Shown in pieces: positions 11,841-56,811 of a DNA stretch of 64,000 nucleotides. Location of the stretch: positions 65,322-129,321 of the IMG/VR virus record IMGVR_UViG_3300035180_000343. One strand, given 5' to 3'. Position 1 is the stretch's first letter; each line of letters opens with the position of its first letter. This stretch comes from a virus. The translations under genes and the position numbers were made by a program. The notes below the pieces were generated by a model. It did not search any database, had not been told where the DNA came from, and saw only the letters and a list, made by a program, of their open reading frames with translations.

Positions 11841-13263
11841 CAGATGGCACCGTAAAACCTTGGCCTTTATGTCAGGGATATAAGGCGTGTTTTTAACTTG
11901 TTCCAAGTATATATTAGTAAAACCATTTTGTCAAGTGCTTTGACAATAATGAGTTCGTCAAAGTTGAACAATTATATAAATATACGTATATGAAACAATT
12001 ACTCGCATACAAATATCGGATTTATCCAACAAAGGATCAAGAAATCCTCTTGAGCAAAACCTTTGGTTGTAAGAGAGTAATCTTCAACCATTACCTAGAA
12101 GTGCAGCAAACCAGATACAAAAACAAAGAACCTCGGTTAAGCAATTTCGACATCAACAAAGACATCACCAAGTTAAAAGATGAAAAGGAATGGTTGAGGG
12201 AAGTCGATATAAACGCACTACAAGCGGCGGCGGGAGATTTGTCTGTTGCATATGACAATTTCTTCAAGTCGGTTACTGGTAAGAGAAAAGGTCCGAAGAT
12301 TTCTCCACCGAAGTTCAAGAACAAAAATTCTAGACAGTCGTATAGGACTCGTAATGTTCGCGTCAATGAAGACGGTTCTTTACAGATACCAAAACTAAAG
12401 TCAGTCAAAGCAGCCATCCACAGAGAAATTCCAGAAGGATCGATAATTAAATCGGCGACCATATCAAGGAACCCAGATGGAAGATATTACGCATCAATAT
12501 TAGTTGAAACAGAAGTAGCATTGCAGCCAATGACAGGTAAAGAAGTCGGTTGCGATTTAGGTCTCAAGGATTTGTTAATCACTTCAAGTGGTATAAAATT
12601 CAAAAGACCCGATGATTTACCAAACATTGCGAGAACCAAGCAATTGTTGAAGTTGAAGCAAAGACAGTTCGCAAGAACCGTTAAAGGTAGCAAAAATCAC
12701 GAATCGTTAAGACTTCAAGTAGCACGACTTTATTCGAAGAGCACAAGACAAAGAAATGAATATTATCATCTAGTTAGCAGATACTTGGTTGATAATTACG
12801 ATTCTATCTACGTCGAAGACTTGTCGAGTAAAAATATGTTACAGAATAGGAAGTTGAGTCGAGCGATTCATGAAGTGGCTTGGACAACTTTGTCCAATAT
12901 GATTTCATATAAATCATCTTGGGCTGGTAAAACTTATCATCAAATCGATCGTTGGTATCCAAGTAGCAAGACCTGTAGCTCTTGTGGTCATAAGCTCGAG
13001 AAACTTGATCTTGGCACTAGAGAATGGACTTGTCCGTCTTGTGGAACTCATCATGATCGTGATTTAAATGCTGCTATGAACATTCTTCATGTCGGTCAAG
13101 CCGACTGCTACGGAGAAGAAATGAAGTCGCAAGCAACAGGCGACTTGGGACTAGAGATCCCAGTGGCCCTACAGAAAATGACCATTAAAATCGAGAGATC
13201 CAACGCTACGTTGGTTGGTCATGGGAGTGGGCAAGCTACGTCCTTTAGGGCGTGGTAGTTGAC
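11841..13263 (+). mobile_element. IS200/IS605-family tnpB-only (IS1341-like) element, copy 1
   Basis: TTTAT|CAGATGG left end; right-end hairpin ending GTAGTTGAC; no tnpA. Confidence 0.9.
11990..13258 (+). CDS. tnpB: TnpB RNA-guided nuclease
   Basis: AYKYRIYPT, GCDLG (RuvC-I), VEDL (RuvC-II), CxxC-CxxC, HDRDLNAA (RuvC-III). Confidence 0.97.
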   Translation: MKQLLAYKYRIYPTKDQEILLSKTFGCKRVIFNHYLEVQQTRYKNKEPRLSNFDINKDITKLKDEKEWLREVDINALQAAAGDLSVAYDNFFKSVTGKRKGPKISPPKFKNKNSRQSYRTRNVRVNEDGSLQIPKLKSVKAAIHREIPEGSIIKSATISRNPDGRYYASILVETEVALQPMTGKEVGCDLGLKDLLITSSGIKFKRPDDLPNIARTKQLLKLKQRQFARTVKGSKNHESLRLQVARLYSKSTRQRNEYYHLVSRYLVDNYDSIYVEDLSSKNMLQNRKLSRAIHEVAWTTLSNMISYKSSWAGKTYHQIDRWYPSSKTCSSCGHKLEKLDLGTREWTCPSCGTHHDRDLNAAMNILHVGQADCYGEEMKSQATGDLGLEIPVALQKMTIKIERSNATLVGHGSGQATSFRAW

Positions 13264-20363: not shown

Positions 20364-21790
20364 CAGTTAGTGCCATAAAATCTTGGTCTTTAGGCCAAAA
20401 ATATAAGGCGTGGTTTTCAACTTGTTTTAATAGTGTATATTAGTGGAATGATTTTGTCAAGTGCTTTGACAAAATTATTTCGTCAAAGTTGAACAATTAT
20501 ATAAATACGTAATATGAAACAATTTATCTCGTACAAATATCGGATTTATCCAACAGAAGACCAACAAGTTCTTCTGAGTAAAACCTTTGGCTGTAAACGA
20601 GCGATTTTCAACCATTACCTTGAAATACAGGAAACTCGATTTAAAAACAAAGAACCTCGGTTAAGCAATTTCGACATCAATAAAGACATTACCAAACTGA
20701 AGAAAGAAAAGGAATGGCTATATGAAGTTGATAATGCTGCATTACAATCTTCTGCTGAAGACTTAACAAAAGCATACGACAATTTCTTCAAGTCGGTTAC
20801 TGGTAAGAGAAAAGGTCCGAAGATATCTCCACCGAAGTTCAAGAACAAGAATTCGCGCCAATCATATAGAACTCACTACGTTCACGTTAATGAAGACGGA
20901 ACACTGCATATTCCGAAACTAAAGTCAGTCAAAGCAGCCATCCACAGAGAAATTCCAGAAGGATCGAAAATTAAATCGGCGACCGTTTCAAGAAATCCTG
21001 ACGGAAGATATTATGCATCAATTTTAGTAGAAACAGAAGTAACATCAAGGCCGATGACCTATCGGGAAGTCGGTTGCGATTTAGGTCTCAAGGATTTGTT
21101 AATTACCTCAAGTGGTATAAAATTCAAGAGGCCAGATGAATTGCCGAACATTGCGAGAACCAAGCAATTATTGAAGTTGAAGCAAAAACAGTTCGCGAGA
21201 ACCGTTAAAGGTAGCAAAAATCACGAATCTTTAAGACTCCAAGTAGCACGGCTTTATTCGAAGAGCACAAGACAAAGAAACGAATATTATCATCTAGTTA
21301 GTAGATACTTGGTTGATAATTACGATTCTATCTACGTTGAAGACTTGTCGAGTAAAAATATGTTACAAAACAGGAAGTTGAGTCGAGCAATCCACGAAGT
21401 GGCGTGGTCAACCTTGTCTGGGATGATCCAGTACAAATCATCTTGGGCTGGTAAAACTTATCATCGGATTGATCGTTGGTATCCAAGTAGCAAGACTTGC
21501 TCTTCTTGTGGTCATAAACTTGAAACACTTGACCTCGGCACCAGAGAATGGACTTGTCCGAACTGTGGAACTCATCATGACCGTGATTTAAATGCTGCTA
21601 TGAACATTCTTCATGTCGGACAATCCGACTGTTATGGAGAAGCAATAAAGTCGCATGCAATAGGCGACTTGGGACTAGAAATCCCATCGGCCCTACAGAA
21701 AATGACCATTAAAATCGAGAGATCCAATGCTAATGTGTTGGTTGGTCATGGGAGTGGGCAAGCCGCGTCCTTTAGGAAGCGGTAGTTGAC
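20364..21790 (+). mobile_element. IS200/IS605-family tnpB-only element, copy 2
   Basis: TATAT|CAG left end; right end GGTAGTTGAC. Confidence 0.9.
20514..21785 (+). CDS. tnpB: TnpB RNA-guided nuclease
   Basis: RuvC D/E/D intact, zinc finger. Confidence 0.97.
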   Translation: MKQFISYKYRIYPTEDQQVLLSKTFGCKRAIFNHYLEIQETRFKNKEPRLSNFDINKDITKLKKEKEWLYEVDNAALQSSAEDLTKAYDNFFKSVTGKRKGPKISPPKFKNKNSRQSYRTHYVHVNEDGTLHIPKLKSVKAAIHREIPEGSKIKSATVSRNPDGRYYASILVETEVTSRPMTYREVGCDLGLKDLLITSSGIKFKRPDELPNIARTKQLLKLKQKQFARTVKGSKNHESLRLQVARLYSKSTRQRNEYYHLVSRYLVDNYDSIYVEDLSSKNMLQNRKLSRAIHEVAWSTLSGMIQYKSSWAGKTYHRIDRWYPSSKTCSSCGHKLETLDLGTREWTCPNCGTHHDRDLNAAMNILHVGQSDCYGEAIKSHAIGDLGLEIPSALQKMTIKIERSNANVLVGHGSGQAASFRKR

Positions 21791-27468: not shown

Positions 27469-28893
27469 CAGGTGGCGCCGTAAAACCTTGGCCTTCAGGC
27501 CAGGGATATAAGGCGTGCTTTTTAACTCGTTCCAATAGTATATGTTAGTGAAACCATTTTGTCAAGTGCTTCGACGAAATAATTTCATCAGAATTAAATA
27601 ATTGTATAAATACGTATATGAAACAATTACTCGCATTCAAATATCGGATTTACCCGACAAAGGATCAAGAAATCCTCTTGAGTAAAACCTTTGGCTGCAA
27701 GCGAGCAATCTTCAATCATTACCTAGAAGTGCAGCAAACCAGATACAAAAACAAAGAACCTCGGTTAAGCAATTTCGACATCAACAAAGACATCACCAAA
27801 CTAAAAGATGAGAAGGAATGGTTAAGGGAAGTCGATTCGGTTGCTCTACAATCTTCTGCTGAAGATCTAACAAAAGCATATGACAATTTCTTCAAATCCG
27901 TAACTGGTAAAAGAAAAGGTCCAAAGATTTCGCCACCGAAGTTCAAGAACAAGAATTCACGTCAGTCGTATCGAACTCGTAATGTTCGAATTAATGAAGA
28001 CGGTTCGTTACAAATACCGAAACTAAAGTCAGTCAAAGCAGCCATCCATAGAGAAATCCCAGAAGGATCGGTGATCAAGACAACGACCATTTCGAGGAAT
28101 CCAGATGGAAGATATTATGCATCAATTTTAGTAGAAACAGAAGTAGCACTGCAACCAATGACCCATAGGGAAGTCGGTTGCGACCTCGGGTTAAAGGATT
28201 TGCTTATCACCTCAAGAGGTATAAAATTTAAAAGACCAGATGAATTACCGAACATTGCGAGAACCAAGCAATTGTTAAAAGCAAAGCAAAAACAGTTCGC
28301 AAGAACTGAAAAGAGTAGCAAAAATCACGAATCTTTAAGACTTCAAGTGGCACGTTTATATTCAAAGGTCACCCGACAAAGAAATGAATATTATCATCTA
28401 GTTAGTAGATACTTGGTTGATAACTATGACTCCATCTATGTCGAAGACTTGTCGAGTAAGAACATGCTACAAAACAGGAAGTTGAGTCGAGCGATTCATG
28501 AGGTAGCTTGGTCAACCTTATCTGGGATGATCCAATATAAATCATCTTGGGCTGGTAAAACTTATCATCGGATTGATCGTTGGTACCCAAGCTCAAAGAC
28601 CTGTTCTAGTTGTGGTCATAAACTTGAAACACTTGACCTCGGCACCAGAGAATGGACTTGTCCAGATTGCGGAACTCATCATGATCGTGATTTGAATGCT
28701 GCTATGAACATTCTTCAGGTCGGTCAAGCCGACTGCTACGGAGAAGCAATAAAGTCGCATGCAATAGGCGACTTGGGAGAAATCCCATCGGCCCTACAGA
28801 AAATGATCATTAAAATCGAGAGATCCAATGTTGATACGTTGGTTGGTCATGGGAGTGGGCAAGCCGCGTCCTATAAAGGACGCGGTAGTTGAC
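27469..28893 (+). mobile_element. IS200/IS605-family tnpB-only element, copy 3
   Basis: TTTAT|CAGGTGG left end; right end GGTAGTTGAC. Confidence 0.9.
27618..28892 (+). CDS. tnpB: TnpB RNA-guided nuclease
   Basis: RuvC D/E/D intact, zinc finger. Confidence 0.97.
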   Translation: MKQLLAFKYRIYPTKDQEILLSKTFGCKRAIFNHYLEVQQTRYKNKEPRLSNFDINKDITKLKDEKEWLREVDSVALQSSAEDLTKAYDNFFKSVTGKRKGPKISPPKFKNKNSRQSYRTRNVRINEDGSLQIPKLKSVKAAIHREIPEGSVIKTTTISRNPDGRYYASILVETEVALQPMTHREVGCDLGLKDLLITSRGIKFKRPDELPNIARTKQLLKAKQKQFARTEKSSKNHESLRLQVARLYSKVTRQRNEYYHLVSRYLVDNYDSIYVEDLSSKNMLQNRKLSRAIHEVAWSTLSGMIQYKSSWAGKTYHRIDRWYPSSKTCSSCGHKLETLDLGTREWTCPDCGTHHDRDLNAAMNILQVGQADCYGEAIKSHAIGDLGEIPSALQKMIIKIERSNVDTLVGHGSGQAASYKGRGS

Positions 28894-43107: not shown

Positions 43108-43393
43108 GTCAACTACCACGCCCTAAAGGACGTAGCTTGCCCACTCCCATGACCAACCAACACATCAGCATTGGATCTCTCGATTTTACTAGTCATTTTC
43201 TGTAGGGCCGATGGGATTTCTAGTCCCAAGTCGCCTGTTGCTTGCGACTATACTACTTCTAGTTACTTTGACAAAATCATTTCACTAGGTAAAATGTAAT
43301 AATTTGGTTCTCGTCATTACATGGTTATTTATACAAATTAAAAGCACGCCTTATATCCCTGGCCTGAAGGCCAAGGTTTTACGGCACCATCTG
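43108..43393 (-). mobile_element. 286-bp non-autonomous tnpB-IS derivative: left end plus omegaRNA scaffold
   Basis: TTAT|CAGATGG left end; 142-nt scaffold 43249-43108 ending GTAGTTGAC; tnpB deleted. Confidence 0.9.
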
Positions 43394-51885: not shown

Positions 51886-51910
51886 TTTATTTTTCCTTCA
51901 CCTCTGTTTT

Positions 51911-51994
51911 TGGTGCATGAGGAGAGACTCGAACTCTCAATCCTTGCGGCGGCAGATTTTAAGTCTGCTGTGTATTCCATTCCACCACTCATGC
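51911..51994 (-). tRNA. tRNA-Leu(TAA)
   Basis: GCATGAG/CTCATGC, CT-TAA-AA, long variable arm, CCA. Confidence 0.93.
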
Positions 51995-52009
51995 TATTGT
52001 TCAATGTTT

Positions 52010-52528
52010 TTAGAATTCTTTAATCGTGTTTGTATACGAAAGGTATTCACCTTTCATGGTATATTTCGCAACACCGGAACTCATTTTTTCATGTTGCTGC
52101 TTTGTCAAATAACAAAATTTGCCTGTCGGTGTTACATAAACCCAGCGTTTAACTGTTTTCCTACGAACTTCGGAACCGCTCAATTTCATGTTGTGACGCG
52201 TCGAATGGTCAACTCCCAATCCCTTCATTAAGGAACGAAATTCGGGGCCGTGAAACTGTTTTGCGTGTGGAATATATTTAGAAACATAATGGTGGCACAC
52301 TTCGTGAGCAACAGTCCTCACCAACACTTGTCCTGGGAATTCTTTAAGGTAATCGATACTGATTACAATTTTACCGGCATTTAATTTTGCAACACCGGCA
52401 ACGCCCTTTTTTAGTTTGTCGATGCTGATATCCAATGGAAATTTAGGATATCCCATTTTTTGGAGTTTGTCTTGAACTTCGGCCATACGAGCTCTAACTA
52501 TTTCAATCATGTTCTTCTCCTTCGTCAC
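52010..52528 (-). CDS. SprT-like zinc metalloprotease
   Basis: AGVA, HEVCH, HGPEF. Confidence 0.85.
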   Translation of the reverse strand: MTKEKNMIEIVRARMAEVQDKLQKMGYPKFPLDISIDKLKKGVAGVAKLNAGKIVISIDYLKEFPGQVLVRTVAHEVCHHYVSKYIPHAKQFHGPEFRSLMKGLGVDHSTRHNMKLSGSEVRRKTVKRWVYVTPTGKFCYLTKQQHEKMSSGVAKYTMKGEYLSYTNTIKEF

Positions 52529-52550
52529 TGTTCAACTACACTATGAACAA

Positions 52551-52579
52551 ATTATATAAGAAGTCCAAAAGATTGTCAA
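52551..52579 (-). promoter_or_regulatory. repeated sigma70 early promoter copy 9
   Basis: TTGACA-17-TATAAT. Confidence 0.85.
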
Positions 52580-52650
52580 GAACTTTTTGAAAGATTCTGC
52601 AACTTGTGTGATTGGATTGTCGGTTTCAAATCCAATCACACACCGTTGAA

Positions 52651-53607
52651 TTAAGCCAGCAGAGCTGCCATTGCTTCGTTCTTGATTTTGTCGGAACCGC
52701 CGAAAGAAGCATCCCAAAACTGTTGAGATTCATTCCGCTTTCCAGAGCCATGAGTATACATATTCGTAATTGCGTTCAATGCACCCCACGCAGTTCCCTT
52801 TGCAATATCGGCCCCAGCACCAGTACGGTAAAGGTCGAGAAGTTGATTCACTTTCCGAATATCGCCCCAAGACTGTTCTTCTTTCTTAGGATCAAAAAAC
52901 AGTTTTTGGTAGAACTCTTGAACAGCGTTTTCTGTCATCTTTGTCGACGCCAGAGTTTCAACATTCTGTTTGAATTTGTCCCACGCATCGTCAATCAAAC
53001 CAAGATCTAGTTTAACTGAGTTCGCGTCAAAATCCGAACGATGAGTCTTCTTTACAAGGTTCTTTGACGATTCATTGAGAGCAATCGACAGCGTGTTGTT
53101 ACAAACTACACGCTCAGAAACAAACTTAGCAGTAGTTGAAAGGGTACCGTCGACACTTGTTACCAACAGAAGGTTTCCTTTGACTTCATCTTCACCTGCA
53201 AGTTTGAAGTCTTTTCCAGTCTCAGCAAGAGCCCAGAAACGCTTTCCGCCGAACAAAACTCCAGCAGTCGACAAAGCCATTCCATGGGTTGTGGTCAGAT
53301 CACGGAAAAATTCCAACACTTCCCCAGGTTGAACAACCCGATAGTCATTCGATACGATGCTTAACGCTGTATTGGTATCAGAACGAAAAAGTGCTTTCCT
53401 ATCTGGGAAAATATGTTCGCCAGCAGCCGACTGATATTTCACCATGGATTCGAATACTTCCCAATCCATCCCAGCCTGCGTCTTCCAGACTTCAATTGGT
53501 GCACCAACTTCGAGCTCTTCGCCCAAACCGTGCCAAATTTTTGAACGCTGACCAGTAAAGGCCATTTCAACTTTTCCGTTTTCGCGAATTGACAATTCAT
53601 GTGCCAT
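52651..53607 (-). CDS. DUF932 (TIGR03299-like) phage/plasmid protein
   Basis: WHGLG, RVVCNNT, GTAWGALNA. Confidence 0.85.
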   Translation of the reverse strand: MAHELSIRENGKVEMAFTGQRSKIWHGLGEELEVGAPIEVWKTQAGMDWEVFESMVKYQSAAGEHIFPDRKALFRSDTNTALSIVSNDYRVVQPGEVLEFFRDLTTTHGMALSTAGVLFGGKRFWALAETGKDFKLAGEDEVKGNLLLVTSVDGTLSTTAKFVSERVVCNNTLSIALNESSKNLVKKTHRSDFDANSVKLDLGLIDDAWDKFKQNVETLASTKMTENAVQEFYQKLFFDPKKEEQSWGDIRKVNQLLDLYRTGAGADIAKGTAWGALNAITNMYTHGSGKRNESQQFWDASFGGSDKIKNEAMAALLA

Positions 53608-53641
53608 TTTTATTCCCCTTCATCACTGTTAATAAAAACAA

Positions 53642-53670
53642 ATTATATAAGAAGATAGAAAGAATGTTAA
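53642..53670 (-). promoter_or_regulatory. repeated sigma70 early promoter copy 10
   Basis: TTAACA-17-TATAAT. Confidence 0.8.
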
Positions 53671-53701
53671 GAACTTTTTCGAAAGATTTTGTTCTTTAGA
53701 A

Positions 53702-53727
53702 TTCGTTCTTTAGGCGTAGCAGTTAAC
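53702..53727 (+). mobile_element. IS right-end remnant
   Basis: ttcgttctttaggcgtagcagttaac matches 23/27 to right end tacgtcctttagggcgtggcagttaac. Confidence 0.65.
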
Positions 53728-53739
53728 CAATTCTGCTTT

Positions 53740-54087
53740 TTAGCCTCGCAGTCCGATCAAGTAGTTAAGCATCGCCTGAGCATTTTCGAGAGTTTCGCCA
53801 CCATTTTTCCAATCTGACCAACGCTCGTATGGCGACCCATCACAATAATCCTTCCCAGTGTTTCTTTTGATCGGACATGATTTAGAGCAACCGTTCGACA
53901 TTCGTTTGCCGGTATTGATGGGGTGGTAAAGCTGACAAAGTGGACAATCATCACTTCCGTTCTCAATGGGATGGTTATTTCCGAACTTCATTTCCTCGAC
54001 GATTCTCGTCCACTTCACGATCGAGCCTTCAATTGCTTCGAGTTCTTCGAGTCCCGTTTCAATCATATTCTTCTCCTTCTTCACCAT
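53740..54087 (-). CDS. Cys-rich early hypothetical protein
   Basis: CPLCQ...C..CPI...C. Confidence 0.65.
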   Translation of the reverse strand: MVKKEKNMIETGLEELEAIEGSIVKWTRIVEEMKFGNNHPIENGSDDCPLCQLYHPINTGKRMSNGCSKSCPIKRNTGKDYCDGSPYERWSDWKNGGETLENAQAMLNYLIGLRG

Positions 54088-54106
54088 TCAACTACACTGT
54101 AAACAA

Positions 54107-54135
54107 ATTATAAAAGAAAACTGAAACATTGTCAA
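54107..54135 (-). promoter_or_regulatory. repeated sigma70 early promoter copy 11
   Basis: TTGACA-17-TATAAT. Confidence 0.85.
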
Positions 54136-54185
54136 GAACTTTTCGAAAGATTTTGTTCTTTAGAATTCGTTCTTTAAATGTTTCA

Positions 54186-54324
54186 GTTAACTGCCACGCC
54201 CTAAAGGACGTAGCTTGCCCACTCCCATGACCAACCAGCATTGTACTGGATCTCTCGATTTTAACGATCATTTTCTGTAGGGCCATTGGGATTTCTAGTC
54301 CCAAGTCGCCTATTGCATGCGACT
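54186..54324 (-). ncRNA. orphan TnpB omegaRNA (reRNA) scaffold
   Basis: 139-nt homolog of tnpB 3' end from AGTCGC hairpin to GCAGTTAAC; no tnpB, no left-end terminus. Confidence 0.85.
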
Positions 54325-54387
54325 ATACTATTTTTAGTTACTTTGACAAAATCATTTCACTAAATAATATATACATGCAATCAACTT

Positions 54388-54630
54388 CTAGTCCGGAATT
54401 TTACTAAACCAATTCTTAACAGCAGCCTCAACTGCTTTTACTGCTTCATCTTCAGTATCAAAGTCGCCAATATGTCTTTGAATTCCAGGTAATTCACAAA
54501 TAGCAGTAAATTTTGACTTGCCAGCCTTGGAGATACCACTGTCGAAGTGAACCCCTCCGACATTCCATGGACCGAGGAACATTGCATCGCTGCTATCTGT
54601 TTTCTTTTCAGTTTCTTTTTTTACTCTCAT
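54388..54630 (-). CDS. hypothetical protein, tandem paralog
   Basis: FLGPWNVG shared with 54671..54892. Confidence 0.7.
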   Translation of the reverse strand: MRVKKETEKKTDSSDAMFLGPWNVGGVHFDSGISKAGKSKFTAICELPGIQRHIGDFDTEDEAVKAVEAAVKNWFSKIPD

Positions 54631-54670
54631 TCTGTCCTTCCTTTTCTTTACGTTTAACTATTATGGGAAA

Positions 54671-54892
54671 TTATTTCGGCAATTTGCCGAACCAATATTT
54701 AATATCTTTTTCAACTGCTTCTTTTGCTTTATCTTCCGCGTCAAAAGTGCCAATACGACCACTAACGCCTGGTAAACCAATTAAAGCAGTATATTTCGAC
54801 CCTTCAAATTGAACACTGCCAACATTCCACGGCCCAAGAAATACCGAGCTGTTTTTTGAACTCTGTGAATCTTTTTTCCAATCAATCTTCAT
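54671..54892 (-). CDS. hypothetical protein, tandem paralog
   Basis: FLGPWNVG...VE..(I/V)K.WF.K. Confidence 0.7.
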   Translation of the reverse strand: MKIDWKKDSQSSKNSSVFLGPWNVGSVQFEGSKYTALIGLPGVSGRIGTFDAEDKAKEAVEKDIKYWFGKLPK

Positions 54893-54942
54893 TTTTTATT
54901 TCTCCTTTACTGTTTAACTACGTTTTACTACACTGCGAACAA

Positions 54943-54971
54943 ATTATATAAGAAGTCCGAAAGAATGTCAA
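54943..54971 (-). promoter_or_regulatory. repeated sigma70 early promoter copy 12
   Basis: TTGACA-17-TATAAT. Confidence 0.85.
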
Positions 54972-54983
54972 GAACTTTTTCGA

Positions 54984-55412
54984 TCAACTTCCTTTAAACT
55001 TTCGTTTTCCGATAGAATGTTTTGCTACTAAATTCCAGTCATTCTTTTCGTCAAACGACAATACCTTGATATTCGAACAAATTGGGCCAAAATGTTTCAT
55101 CTCTTTCTCTTTTTCAAGAATCTTCACTAGATTCCAATTTTCTAACAAAAGAGCAATCGACCTAACCCTCTCTAAATCCGAATCGGATGGAACGGCATCC
55201 TTACCATCCATTGCGAGCAACGATTTAAAATGAGAGATAAAGTATCGCCCCATTTTATGGAACACGTGACAAGATTGAGTTAGAGTCCGTTGCTTTATGC
55301 TTGGGATTCCAATTCTTGAAAGTGTTTCAACGACACGGTTAAATTGGCTCGTAGAAAGTGGTTCAATTTCAACCATCTCAGCTAGAATGTCTTGCATATA
55401 TTCCTGTTCCAT
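54984..55412 (-). CDS. regA: translational repressor RegA
   Basis: ETLSRIGI, QSCHVFHK.GRY.I.HFK. Confidence 0.93.
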   Translation of the reverse strand: MEQEYMQDILAEMVEIEPLSTSQFNRVVETLSRIGIPSIKQRTLTQSCHVFHKMGRYFISHFKSLLAMDGKDAVPSDSDLERVRSIALLLENWNLVKILEKEKEMKHFGPICSNIKVLSFDEKNDWNLVAKHSIGKRKFKGS

Positions 55413-55438
55413 CGTTAGCTCTTTTTGATTGCAACTGA

Positions 55439-55846
55439 CTATTTATCCCGCTTTGATTTAGCTTTCCCACCCATTTCATACCAGCTTGAAATGGTTTCTA
55501 AATCTTTCTCAGACAGAATAGACAAGTAATCCCTTGCCTCTCGGGTAGAACATTCAAATACTTTAGAAATGAGTTCTACGTTTTCCTCTTTGACACCCTT
55601 TGCCCATTTACAATACGGAGATAGTTTTTTTGTTTTTGCAATATGAAACAGAAAATCATATTGTAGTTTCGGGTCAAGGTGGAAGTTTTCATTTATCACC
55701 TGGGCTGCCTCTGCCATCGAAGCATTCATCGACCCCCATTTCATCATCATAAATGTTGGATAATCTTTCTCGTCATCTTCGGTAAGTTGAAGATATTTCT
55801 TATTAGTGATCGACGGAATAATTTCCTTGAAAAGATCGTAACTCAC
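55439..55846 (-). CDS. 62: clamp loader small subunit gp62
   Basis: LQYDFL, KWAK, EARDYL; between gp44 and regA. Confidence 0.88.
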   Translation of the reverse strand: MSYDLFKEIIPSITNKKYLQLTEDDEKDYPTFMMMKWGSMNASMAEAAQVINENFHLDPKLQYDFLFHIAKTKKLSPYCKWAKGVKEENVELISKVFECSTREARDYLSILSEKDLETISSWYEMGGKAKSKRDK

Positions 55847-56811
55847 TTGAAAGTCACCTCAGACATACATTCCACGCTAAATGCAGCCAAATTTATTTCT
55901 GGGTTTACACTCGACATTGCTCGATATTCGTAATTAGCAATTAGCAGGATTAGATTTGGAATACTTTGTGGTTCGACGAGTTCATATGCCAAATCATAAA
56001 TCTTACGAAACAACCCTTGCACATCGGAATGACAGTTAGCAGCAATCCATTGTCTAGCATCCCCGAACTTTTTGTTCTTCAATGCTCGAATATACATTGT
56101 GATGTCTTGATCTCCAGAAGATGCTGAAACAGAAACTTCGTCAATCTTACCAGTCGTTTGAGCAATATTCTGAAGTTCGTTAATAGTTCGGCGAAAGTCT
56201 GGAAAATACTTTTTCACAAGAGATGCTAAAGCTGGTTTTTCAACTGGGATTTGTTCTTCTTCTAAAATCTGAATTAAACGACCCATGAAAGTCTTAGCAA
56301 CCTTTGACATTTCGTCTTTAGGGATTGCTAGTGAGATATTCGTACAACGTGAATGGATTGCGTCGATAATCTTATTGGGAAAATTGCAAGTTAGAATGAA
56401 TCGACATGTTTTTGCGAACTCTTCCATCGCTCCACGAAGAGCTGCCTGAAAGATTGGAGTTGCATGATCGAACTCGTCGAGAATTACGATTTTGATTGGG
56501 GATTCTGAATCGAACGACACGGTGCTCGCAAACGTTGTAATTGTGCTCCGAAGAACATCAATCCCTCTGGCGTCTGATGCATTGATAACAATGAAGTCAG
56601 CCCCCATTTCTCTCGCTAGAGCTTTAGCAAAAGTTGTTTTTCCAATGCCAGCCGAACCCGACGCGAGGATATTAGGACAATCTTTCTGATCAACGAACGA
56701 CTGAAGGGTTTGCTTCACGGTATCGACTAAAATACAGTCTCGAACTCGAGCTGGGCGGTACTTTTCGACCCAAAGCAAATGAGATGGATCAAATTCAAAA
56801 TCTTCTGACAT
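55843..56811 (-). CDS. 44: clamp loader large subunit gp44
   Basis: LWVEKYRP, GIGKTT, LDEFD, SRC, YFPDFRR; start corrected to MSEDFEF. Confidence 0.95.
   Translation of the reverse strand: MSEDFEFDPSHLLWVEKYRPARVRDCILVDTVKQTLQSFVDQKDCPNILASGSAGIGKTTFAKALAREMGADFIVINASDARGIDVLRSTITTFASTVSFDSESPIKIVILDEFDHATPIFQAALRGAMEEFAKTCRFILTCNFPNKIIDAIHSRCTNISLAIPKDEMSKVAKTFMGRLIQILEEEQIPVEKPALASLVKKYFPDFRRTINELQNIAQTTGKIDEVSVSASSGDQDITMYIRALKNKKFGDARQWIAANCHSDVQGLFRKIYDLAYELVEPQSIPNLILLIANYEYRAMSSVNPEINLAAFSVECMSEVTFK

Follow-up and report, generated by a model that had tools for sequence, protein, structure and literature searches.

The 64,000-nt stretch of DNA analysed here (the window) makes up the latter half of a 129-kb IMG/VR virus record from an uncultured, T4-like mat/sediment phage, and near 54 kb it carries a TnpB omegaRNA scaffold without a tnpB gene and without the left end of its element. 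A preliminary description took this immobile, promoter-fused scaffold for a domesticated guide aimed at a host, a plasmid, or a competitor phage, and read its retention as a sign of that domestication. The question raised by the locus is whether the copy is kept for what it could target, or whether it is a stranded piece of a mobile element. The scaffold copies and tnpB genes of the window are as follows.

54186-54324 (− strand): TnpB omegaRNA scaffold without tnpB; seven helices, 42 base pairs (the 54-kb copy)
43108-43249 (− strand): scaffold copy of the 43-kb mini-cassette
13125-13263 (+ strand): scaffold copy
21649-21790 (+ strand): scaffold copy
28753-28893 (+ strand): scaffold copy
11990-13258 (+ strand): tnpB copy 1, 422 aa; possible protein partner in trans
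20514-21785 (+ strand): tnpB copy 2, 423 aa; RuvC Asp/Glu/Asp aligned with ISDra2 TnpB
27618-28892 (+ strand): tnpB copy 3, 424 aa
43108-43393 (− strand): tnpB-less, PATE-like mini-cassette, left-end hairpin intact, flanked by TTAT

The five copies of the ~139-nt scaffold were recovered by BLASTN with positions 54101-54420 as the query (identities of 84-90%, E values of 1e-39 to 1e-65), and no sixth copy was found in the other half of the 129-kb record. Under a covariance model built from 16 copies (R1), the 54-kb copy scores 167.6 bits, the second best value in the genome, and forms 42 of the 42 consensus pairs; its identity to the 15 other copies is 84-95%. The 139-nt scaffold and its retained hairpins, both reported in the preliminary description, are thereby confirmed, with a correction to the last bases—that is, with GTTAAC (54191-54186) in place of the GTTGA(C/T) of all 15 other copies, the GTTAAC being attributable, from the alignments, to a native phage hairpin that overlaps the scaffold end. 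In sequence and structure, the copy is homologous to the tnpB 3′ region and right end, as expected of an omegaRNA. No Rfam family was found for the scaffold, and a relaxed threshold gave only noise-level miRNA/snoRNA matches on the hairpin. As in a non-autonomous element, there is no protein gene inside, but only the tail frame of the former tnpB, which reads through 70 codons (54092-54304, − strand) and is left open through the guide position and the hairpin by loss of the TAG stop; this frame is without an obvious ribosome-binding site and is probably not a gene.

The proteins with which such an RNA could work are encoded nearby. All three 422-424-aa ORFs contain HTH_OrfB_IS605 and OrfB_IS605 (Pfam) and Cas12f1-like TNB domains, with a scaffold at the 3′ end of each, and they align with residues 7-366 of ISDra2 TnpB (E = 8e-69), with the RuvC Asp, Glu, and Asp residues conserved; cognate TnpB with an apparently intact active site is thus present. 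The intact elements (11845-13263, 20372-21790, and 27476-28893, + strand) are all antisense to the surrounding phage genes, and each tnpB ATG is preceded by TATAAATA, a T4 late-promoter box. Both tnpB-less copies (43108-43393 and 54186-54373, − strand) are sense-oriented and would be co-transcribed.

A left-end hairpin, promoter stretch, and scaffold without tnpB, as at 43 kb, also occur together in related contigs obtained by IMG/VR pattern scans from the same group of metagenomes (L005/L003, L006, L008, L319, and L320). Each of these mini-cassettes lies at a different site, with a different following sequence and with TTAT(C) before it. The occurrence of mini-cassettes with a left end and the same junction at different sites and with different guides (the 43-kb copy, L005, L006, L008, L319, and L320) indicates that the parent element was mobile. 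The TAM is inferred to be TTAT(C), which stands at all 11 left ends; its first two positions vary in the natural flanks of the family, where ATAT and TCAT are found beside TTAT. In L006 (5555-5700), an inverted left-end copy adjoins the left end of the mini-cassette, suggesting a nested insertion of one element beside another.

Three features define the upstream side of the 54-kb copy.

54322-54349 (− strand): predicted sigma70-type promoter TTGTCA-16-TATAGT, with 10/12 matches, abutting the scaffold
54325-54373 (− strand): internal left-end-derived segment, TATATATTA..TAGTGAAATGATTTTGTCAA..TAGTAT, whose fusion to the scaffold is the junction of the 43-kb mini-cassette
54374-54390 (− strand): stop codon of the 80-aa gene and native flank, TAGAAGTTGATTGCATG, common to a scaffold-less allele (contig L348)

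The junction reads TTTTGTCAAAGTAACTAAAAATAGTAT|AGTCGC at 54 kb and TTTTGTCAAAGTAACTAGAAGTAGTAT|AGTCGC at 43 kb; both tnpB-less window copies have TTTTGTCAAAGTAACTA(A/G)AA(A/G)TAGTAT|AGTCGC, and the earlier statement that they share one promoter-scaffold junction is therefore borne out. The start implied by the predicted promoter falls inside the 5′ arm of helix 1. In a scan of the window, the left-end hairpin appeared at just four places (11850, 20372, 27476, and 43385), all of them remote from 54 kb. On comparison with L348, the stretch AAGTTGATTGCATG to the left of the copy is native flank rather than left-end sequence, and 54374-54390 would be the left limit of the inserted DNA. The claim that the copy is immobile holds as well, in that TnpA should be unable to move a copy with neither tnpB nor a left end. 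Furthermore, the right-end tip appears to have been lost along with the left end. The pair of end hairpins and the TAM flank expected of a PATE-like element are accordingly not found at 54 kb, because there is no left-end hairpin at the locus, the sequence is native flank from 17 nt past the upstream stop, and the right-end tip has been replaced.

What occupies the guide position is revealed by the scaffold-less allele. An exact-protein look-up of the upstream 80-aa gene yielded three contigs from other samples (L346, L347, and L348), of which L346 and L347 belong to the same JGI records as L124 and L125. In L348, the same 80-aa and 115-aa genes are separated by a spacer that is ~126 nt shorter and contains no scaffold. 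The flanks of this spacer are identical to those of the window on the left up to GATTGC(A/G)TG and on the right from GTTAA(T/C)TGAAACATTT, homology resuming with GTTAA(T/C)TGAAACATTTAAAG, and 62 unrelated nt starting CTTAT stand where the window has ~190 nt. A decayed scaffold in these 62 nt was ruled out, with 175 of 500 shuffles reaching the score of their alignment to the window insert. Because the guide and the GTTAA(T/C) before it are already present in scaffold-less L348, the guide is native to the phage, and GGTTAACTG also opens a paralogous spacer at 53727. The right joint would thus be a deletion joint, with both tips lost, since the native guide is part of a hairpin conserved in L348, and the GTTAAC tip is best read as a joint within a short GTT homology between the right end and native sequence. 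A guide lying directly after a canonical right-end tip and matching a TAM-flanked vacant site was therefore not found for this copy: its tip is GTTAAC, and the vacant allele in L348 has TTAAT, not TTAT(C), together with 62 extra nt.

The native sequence at the guide position is part of a larger structure.

54166-54185 (− strand): guide-position 20 nt, TGAAACATTTAAAGAACGAA, as given in the preliminary description; identical in L348, 5′ arm of the hairpin
54119-54188 (− strand): long hairpin followed by a U-rich run; −26.4 kcal/mol, z = −4.55
54107-54135 (− strand): early promoter TTGACA-17-TATAAT of the 115-aa gene, a repeat with ~12 copies in the window

In 200 shuffles, no fold as stable as the 54119-54188 hairpin was obtained; the 3′ arm of this hairpin overlaps the −35 region of the perfect TTGACA-17-TATAAT promoter. 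The hairpin folds identically in L348 (559-628), where the window pair C54186-G54121 is replaced by U-A; this single compensatory difference suggests that the stem itself is under structural selection. The hairpin is of the type of the composite promoter-terminator motifs (PeSLs) of T4-like phages (Arbiol 2010, PMC2839356; Comeau 2014, PMC4122927), described in coliphage, Yersinia-phage, and vibriophage relatives. As in PeSLs, a stem-loop (here the source of the guide) is joined to a recurring early promoter, and copies of the promoter bound indels between close relatives; unlike in those described, the phage is an uncultured one from a mat/sediment sample and the stem is unusually long. According to the folding model, the guide-position sequence would be base-paired in a transcript and kept for hairpin formation. 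As far as the two alleles can be compared, the 54-kb locus is shown to be a structurally perfect scaffold fused directly to a native, promoter-linked hairpin, with the 5′ arm of that hairpin in the guide position.

For the function proposed in the preliminary description, the omegaRNA would direct TnpB of the phage to cut a host, plasmid, or competitor sequence, TGAAACATTTAAAGAA, beside TTAT. The intact scaffold, the three tnpB genes with a catalytic triad in the same window, the predicted promoter at the junction, and the covariation of the scaffold family (described below) speak for such a guide. However, the guide pre-exists in the scaffold-less allele, within a hairpin that keeps its pairing by compensatory change, and target searches gave no credible candidate in IMG/VR, GTDB, metagenomes, or five related phage records. 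As stated earlier, no TTAT-flanked match to the guide is present in the window, and the same holds for the whole 129-kb record; in the five related records, even the best match lacks a TAM and departs from the guide at one seed position. The guide 16-mer has more than 114 matches in IMG/VR, of which none continues CGAA and three sequences have TTAT upstream, a chance level. TTAT(N) followed by the 16-mer was found 65 times in GTDB genomes (one per species, 185,579 species) and at least 120 times in JGI/ENA metagenome contigs; these matches, at least 185 altogether, come from many unrelated taxa, and among those listed they extend to 20 nt as chance would predict. The one full 20-mer among the at least 185 listed (L229), within an ORF on a 1.5-kb contig of very high AT content, was set aside as chance. 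Two further candidates were rejected, both without a TAM: a resemblance to ATGAAAACATTTAAA(C/G)AA gene starts (MKTFK...), which needs a 1-nt bulge, and an inverted-repeat self-targeting of the downstream promoter, with only 9-10 contiguous nt. A comparison can also be drawn with TldR and other domesticated TnpB-guide pairs of prophages, in that a guide RNA of TnpB ancestry is borne by a phage outside any mobile element (PMC10705468). In TldR systems, the protein is a dead nuclease and the guide is matched to conserved host promoters (PMC10705468), whereas the TnpBs of the window keep the catalytic triad and the 54-kb guide matches nothing but its own flank, with no target beyond chance in the 185,579 species genomes. 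A domesticated trans-acting guide is thus quite unlikely here.

The perfect 20-nt match in L348, preceded by TTAAT, admits a different kind of target, in which TnpB and the omegaRNA would cut L348-type alleles and repair would copy in the scaffold, perhaps with linked genes. Homing of TnpB at vacant sites is established (PMC10055086), and the flanks of the family do vary in the first two TAM positions. Yet TTAAT differs from the TTAT(C) of every left end, the copy itself has TTAAC before the same sequence, leaving a single base to separate self from non-self, and the guide is locked in the −26 kcal/mol hairpin. Moreover, the nearest cassette-free relative (L127) has no guide match at the homologous site. 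Selfish homing of this kind is very unlikely. A broader proposal, which we also consider quite improbable, is that an immobile guide-RNA gene has become fixed in a shufflable, promoter-bounded cassette and acts with the late-made TnpB of sister elements against the scaffold-less allele (with TTAAT as a relaxed TAM) or an unsampled target. If true, the locus would represent an early natural stage in the passage from selfish omegaRNA to a standing arsenal of several guides, five of them in this one phage.

The intactness of the scaffold has also been taken as a sign of selection. At the level of the family, 99.1% of cells are paired, five pairs change on both sides, and the covariation score is reached by none of 500 shuffles. 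The change of GGGA-CTAGAAA-TCCC to a GGGA-GAAA-TCCC tetraloop noted earlier in copy 3 is real and recurs in five related contigs (L006, L007, L008, L319, and L320), in a family that shows structural covariation. The 54-kb copy itself has two private changes, both in its last ten bases, one of which is explained by the native hairpin. The second, T to C at 54190, removes the tnpB TAG stop and turns a G-U pair at the base of helix 7 into G-C. This T to C was found in three of seven tnpB-less copies (54-kb, L319, and L320) vs. none of nine intact copies; the sites (window 54190, L319 near 2973, and L320 near 6337) have three different helix-7 backgrounds. In addition, L319 has a double compensatory change in helix 4. 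The recurrent T to C in tnpB-less copies and the L319 change together suggest, by comparative sequence evidence, a continuing RNA-level constraint on tnpB-less scaffolds as a group.

For the 54-kb copy in particular, intactness by itself does not show selection, because a non-functional scaffold is equally preserved. A 5′-truncated scaffold in L003 (1142-1234, − strand), corresponding to positions ~47-139 and ending in the canonical GTTGAC tip, is without helices 1 and 2 and one strand of helix 3, and is nonetheless ~99% identical over the remaining part. Over the orphan, contigs L124 and L125 do not differ from the window, but this identity carries no information, as there are only 11 differences in ~4 kb.

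The wider locus lies among genes for clamp-loader subunits, regA, a DUF932 gene, and a SprT-like gene, and the scaffold belongs to a small variable unit.

54147-54922 (− strand): accessory cassette of a 73-aa gene, an 80-aa gene, and the orphan scaffold, bounded by two early-promoter repeats

In a relative (L127/L128) with 98% identity upstream and 90% downstream, the promoter occurs once at this point and the cassette is entirely absent. Two indels separate the window from L127, namely the small-gene cassette (54147-54922) and a SprT-like gene with a tRNA (51904-52514), each with copies of the one early-promoter repeat at its borders. In a metagenome contig, 54084 is joined to 54929; in four metagenomes, word-depths are lower over the cassette than over its flanks, although depths of this kind do not allow ranking and were given no weight. 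Three runs show a scaffold copy that continues into ATATAATTTGTCCATAGTG and from there into the leader of the 73-aa gene (metagenome contigs, window 54185 and 54918), a joint that would place an element at the −10 box of the cassette promoter in other strains, and a scaffold-into-scaffold joint (54319/54189) was seen in one run. Retention as a sign of domestication is thus not upheld, the cassette being polymorphic and the L003 debris equally preserved. The comparison across related phages proposed earlier gave the same guide without scaffold in L348, no cassette in L127, and identity in L124/L125.

The two small genes (54388-54630 and 54671-54892, − strand) are tandem paralogues encoding 80- and 73-aa proteins that are 42% identical. 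The proteins have no Pfam match and show a weak PHROG match (E ~4e-4) to the C-terminal-half region of phage HNH endonuclease profiles, a region that appears to resemble an AP2-type DNA-binding motif. No homologues were found outside their own cluster, and a related-locus search run with the 115-aa protein and with the 80-aa protein was likewise negative. Megablast of positions 52000-56000 found nothing in the INPHARED phage collection, and neither the intergenic 21-mer nor the left-junction 25-mer had an exact match in IMG/VR.

Since the scaffold follows the 80-aa gene directly and in the sense direction, with no terminator between and with the hairpin and U-run after it, it might have been co-opted as a 3′-UTR element that stabilises or insulates the early mRNA of the small-gene pair, or as a decoy tuning the supply of TnpB to the three intact elements. 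That both tnpB-less window copies are co-directional with phage genes, while the three intact elements are antisense, also speaks for such a role. On the other side, a scaffold-less allele with the same hairpin exists in the same population, and conservation across diverged relatives was not found; we regard co-option as unlikely.

The 54-kb copy is instead probably a stranded remnant of a gene-less, PATE-like omegaRNA mini-IS of the phage's own IS605-type tnpB family. A mini-cassette consisting of left end, promoter, scaffold, and right end would have inserted between the 80-aa gene and the promoter hairpin, directly behind the TTAT of the CTTAT in an L348-like spacer. Two microhomology-bounded deletions would have followed, the first taking TTAT and the left-end hairpin, and the second taking the right-end tip and ~57 nt of flank; this history is drawn from two alleles only. 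Expression is probable, with the scaffold either transcribed as the 3′ portion of the early mRNA for the two small genes or driven by its own sigma70-like box, and the RNA could bind TnpB from the three intact elements; none of the runs recorded as RNA was found to contain the locus. With an accidental guide, base-paired in the hairpin and without a TAM-flanked target, the copy is likely idle or at most soaks up TnpB, and it may persist because it is young and not excisable. Against the remnant reading, no scaffold pair is broken, the recurrent T to C fits RNA-level selection, and both proposed deletions spared exactly the promoter-plus-scaffold unit. Of the interpretation in the preliminary description, the anatomy (no tnpB, no left end, and an abutting promoter box) thus stands, and the domesticated-guide function does not.

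Elements of this kind are already known: PATE-like, non-autonomous IS200/IS605 elements of Geobacillus stearothermophilus encode omegaRNAs (Meers et al., 2023, PMC10055086). Like these, the 54-kb copy has no protein gene, contains a complete omegaRNA scaffold of a resident tnpB family, and needs a nuclease in trans. The 43-kb copy and the copies in L005, L006, L008, L319, and L320 fit the PATE description fully, whereas the 54-kb copy, without left-end hairpin, TAM, and right-end tip, is a truncated derivative that is not transposable; it also resides in a lytic T4-like phage, and PATEs in a bacterial chromosome. With the ISDra2 TnpB-omegaRNA complex (PDB 8bf8/8exa/8h1j), the phage family shares alignable TnpBs with the conserved RuvC triad and a scaffold that overlaps the tnpB 3′ end and ends at the right end. 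It differs from ISDra2 in the TAM, inferred to be TTAT(C) as opposed to TTGAT, and in the detachment of the 54-kb scaffold from its gene.

The locus calls for caution, in that an intact, promoter-fused, immobile scaffold can mimic a domesticated weapon until a sibling allele exposes the guide as a promoter hairpin. It could also serve for testing whether tnpB-less scaffolds still load TnpB. Overall, the states found in one mat/sediment population—that is, no cassette, a cassette without scaffold, and a cassette with a stranded scaffold—form a series that documents how both tips are lost from omegaRNA mini-elements in a highly recombining phage.
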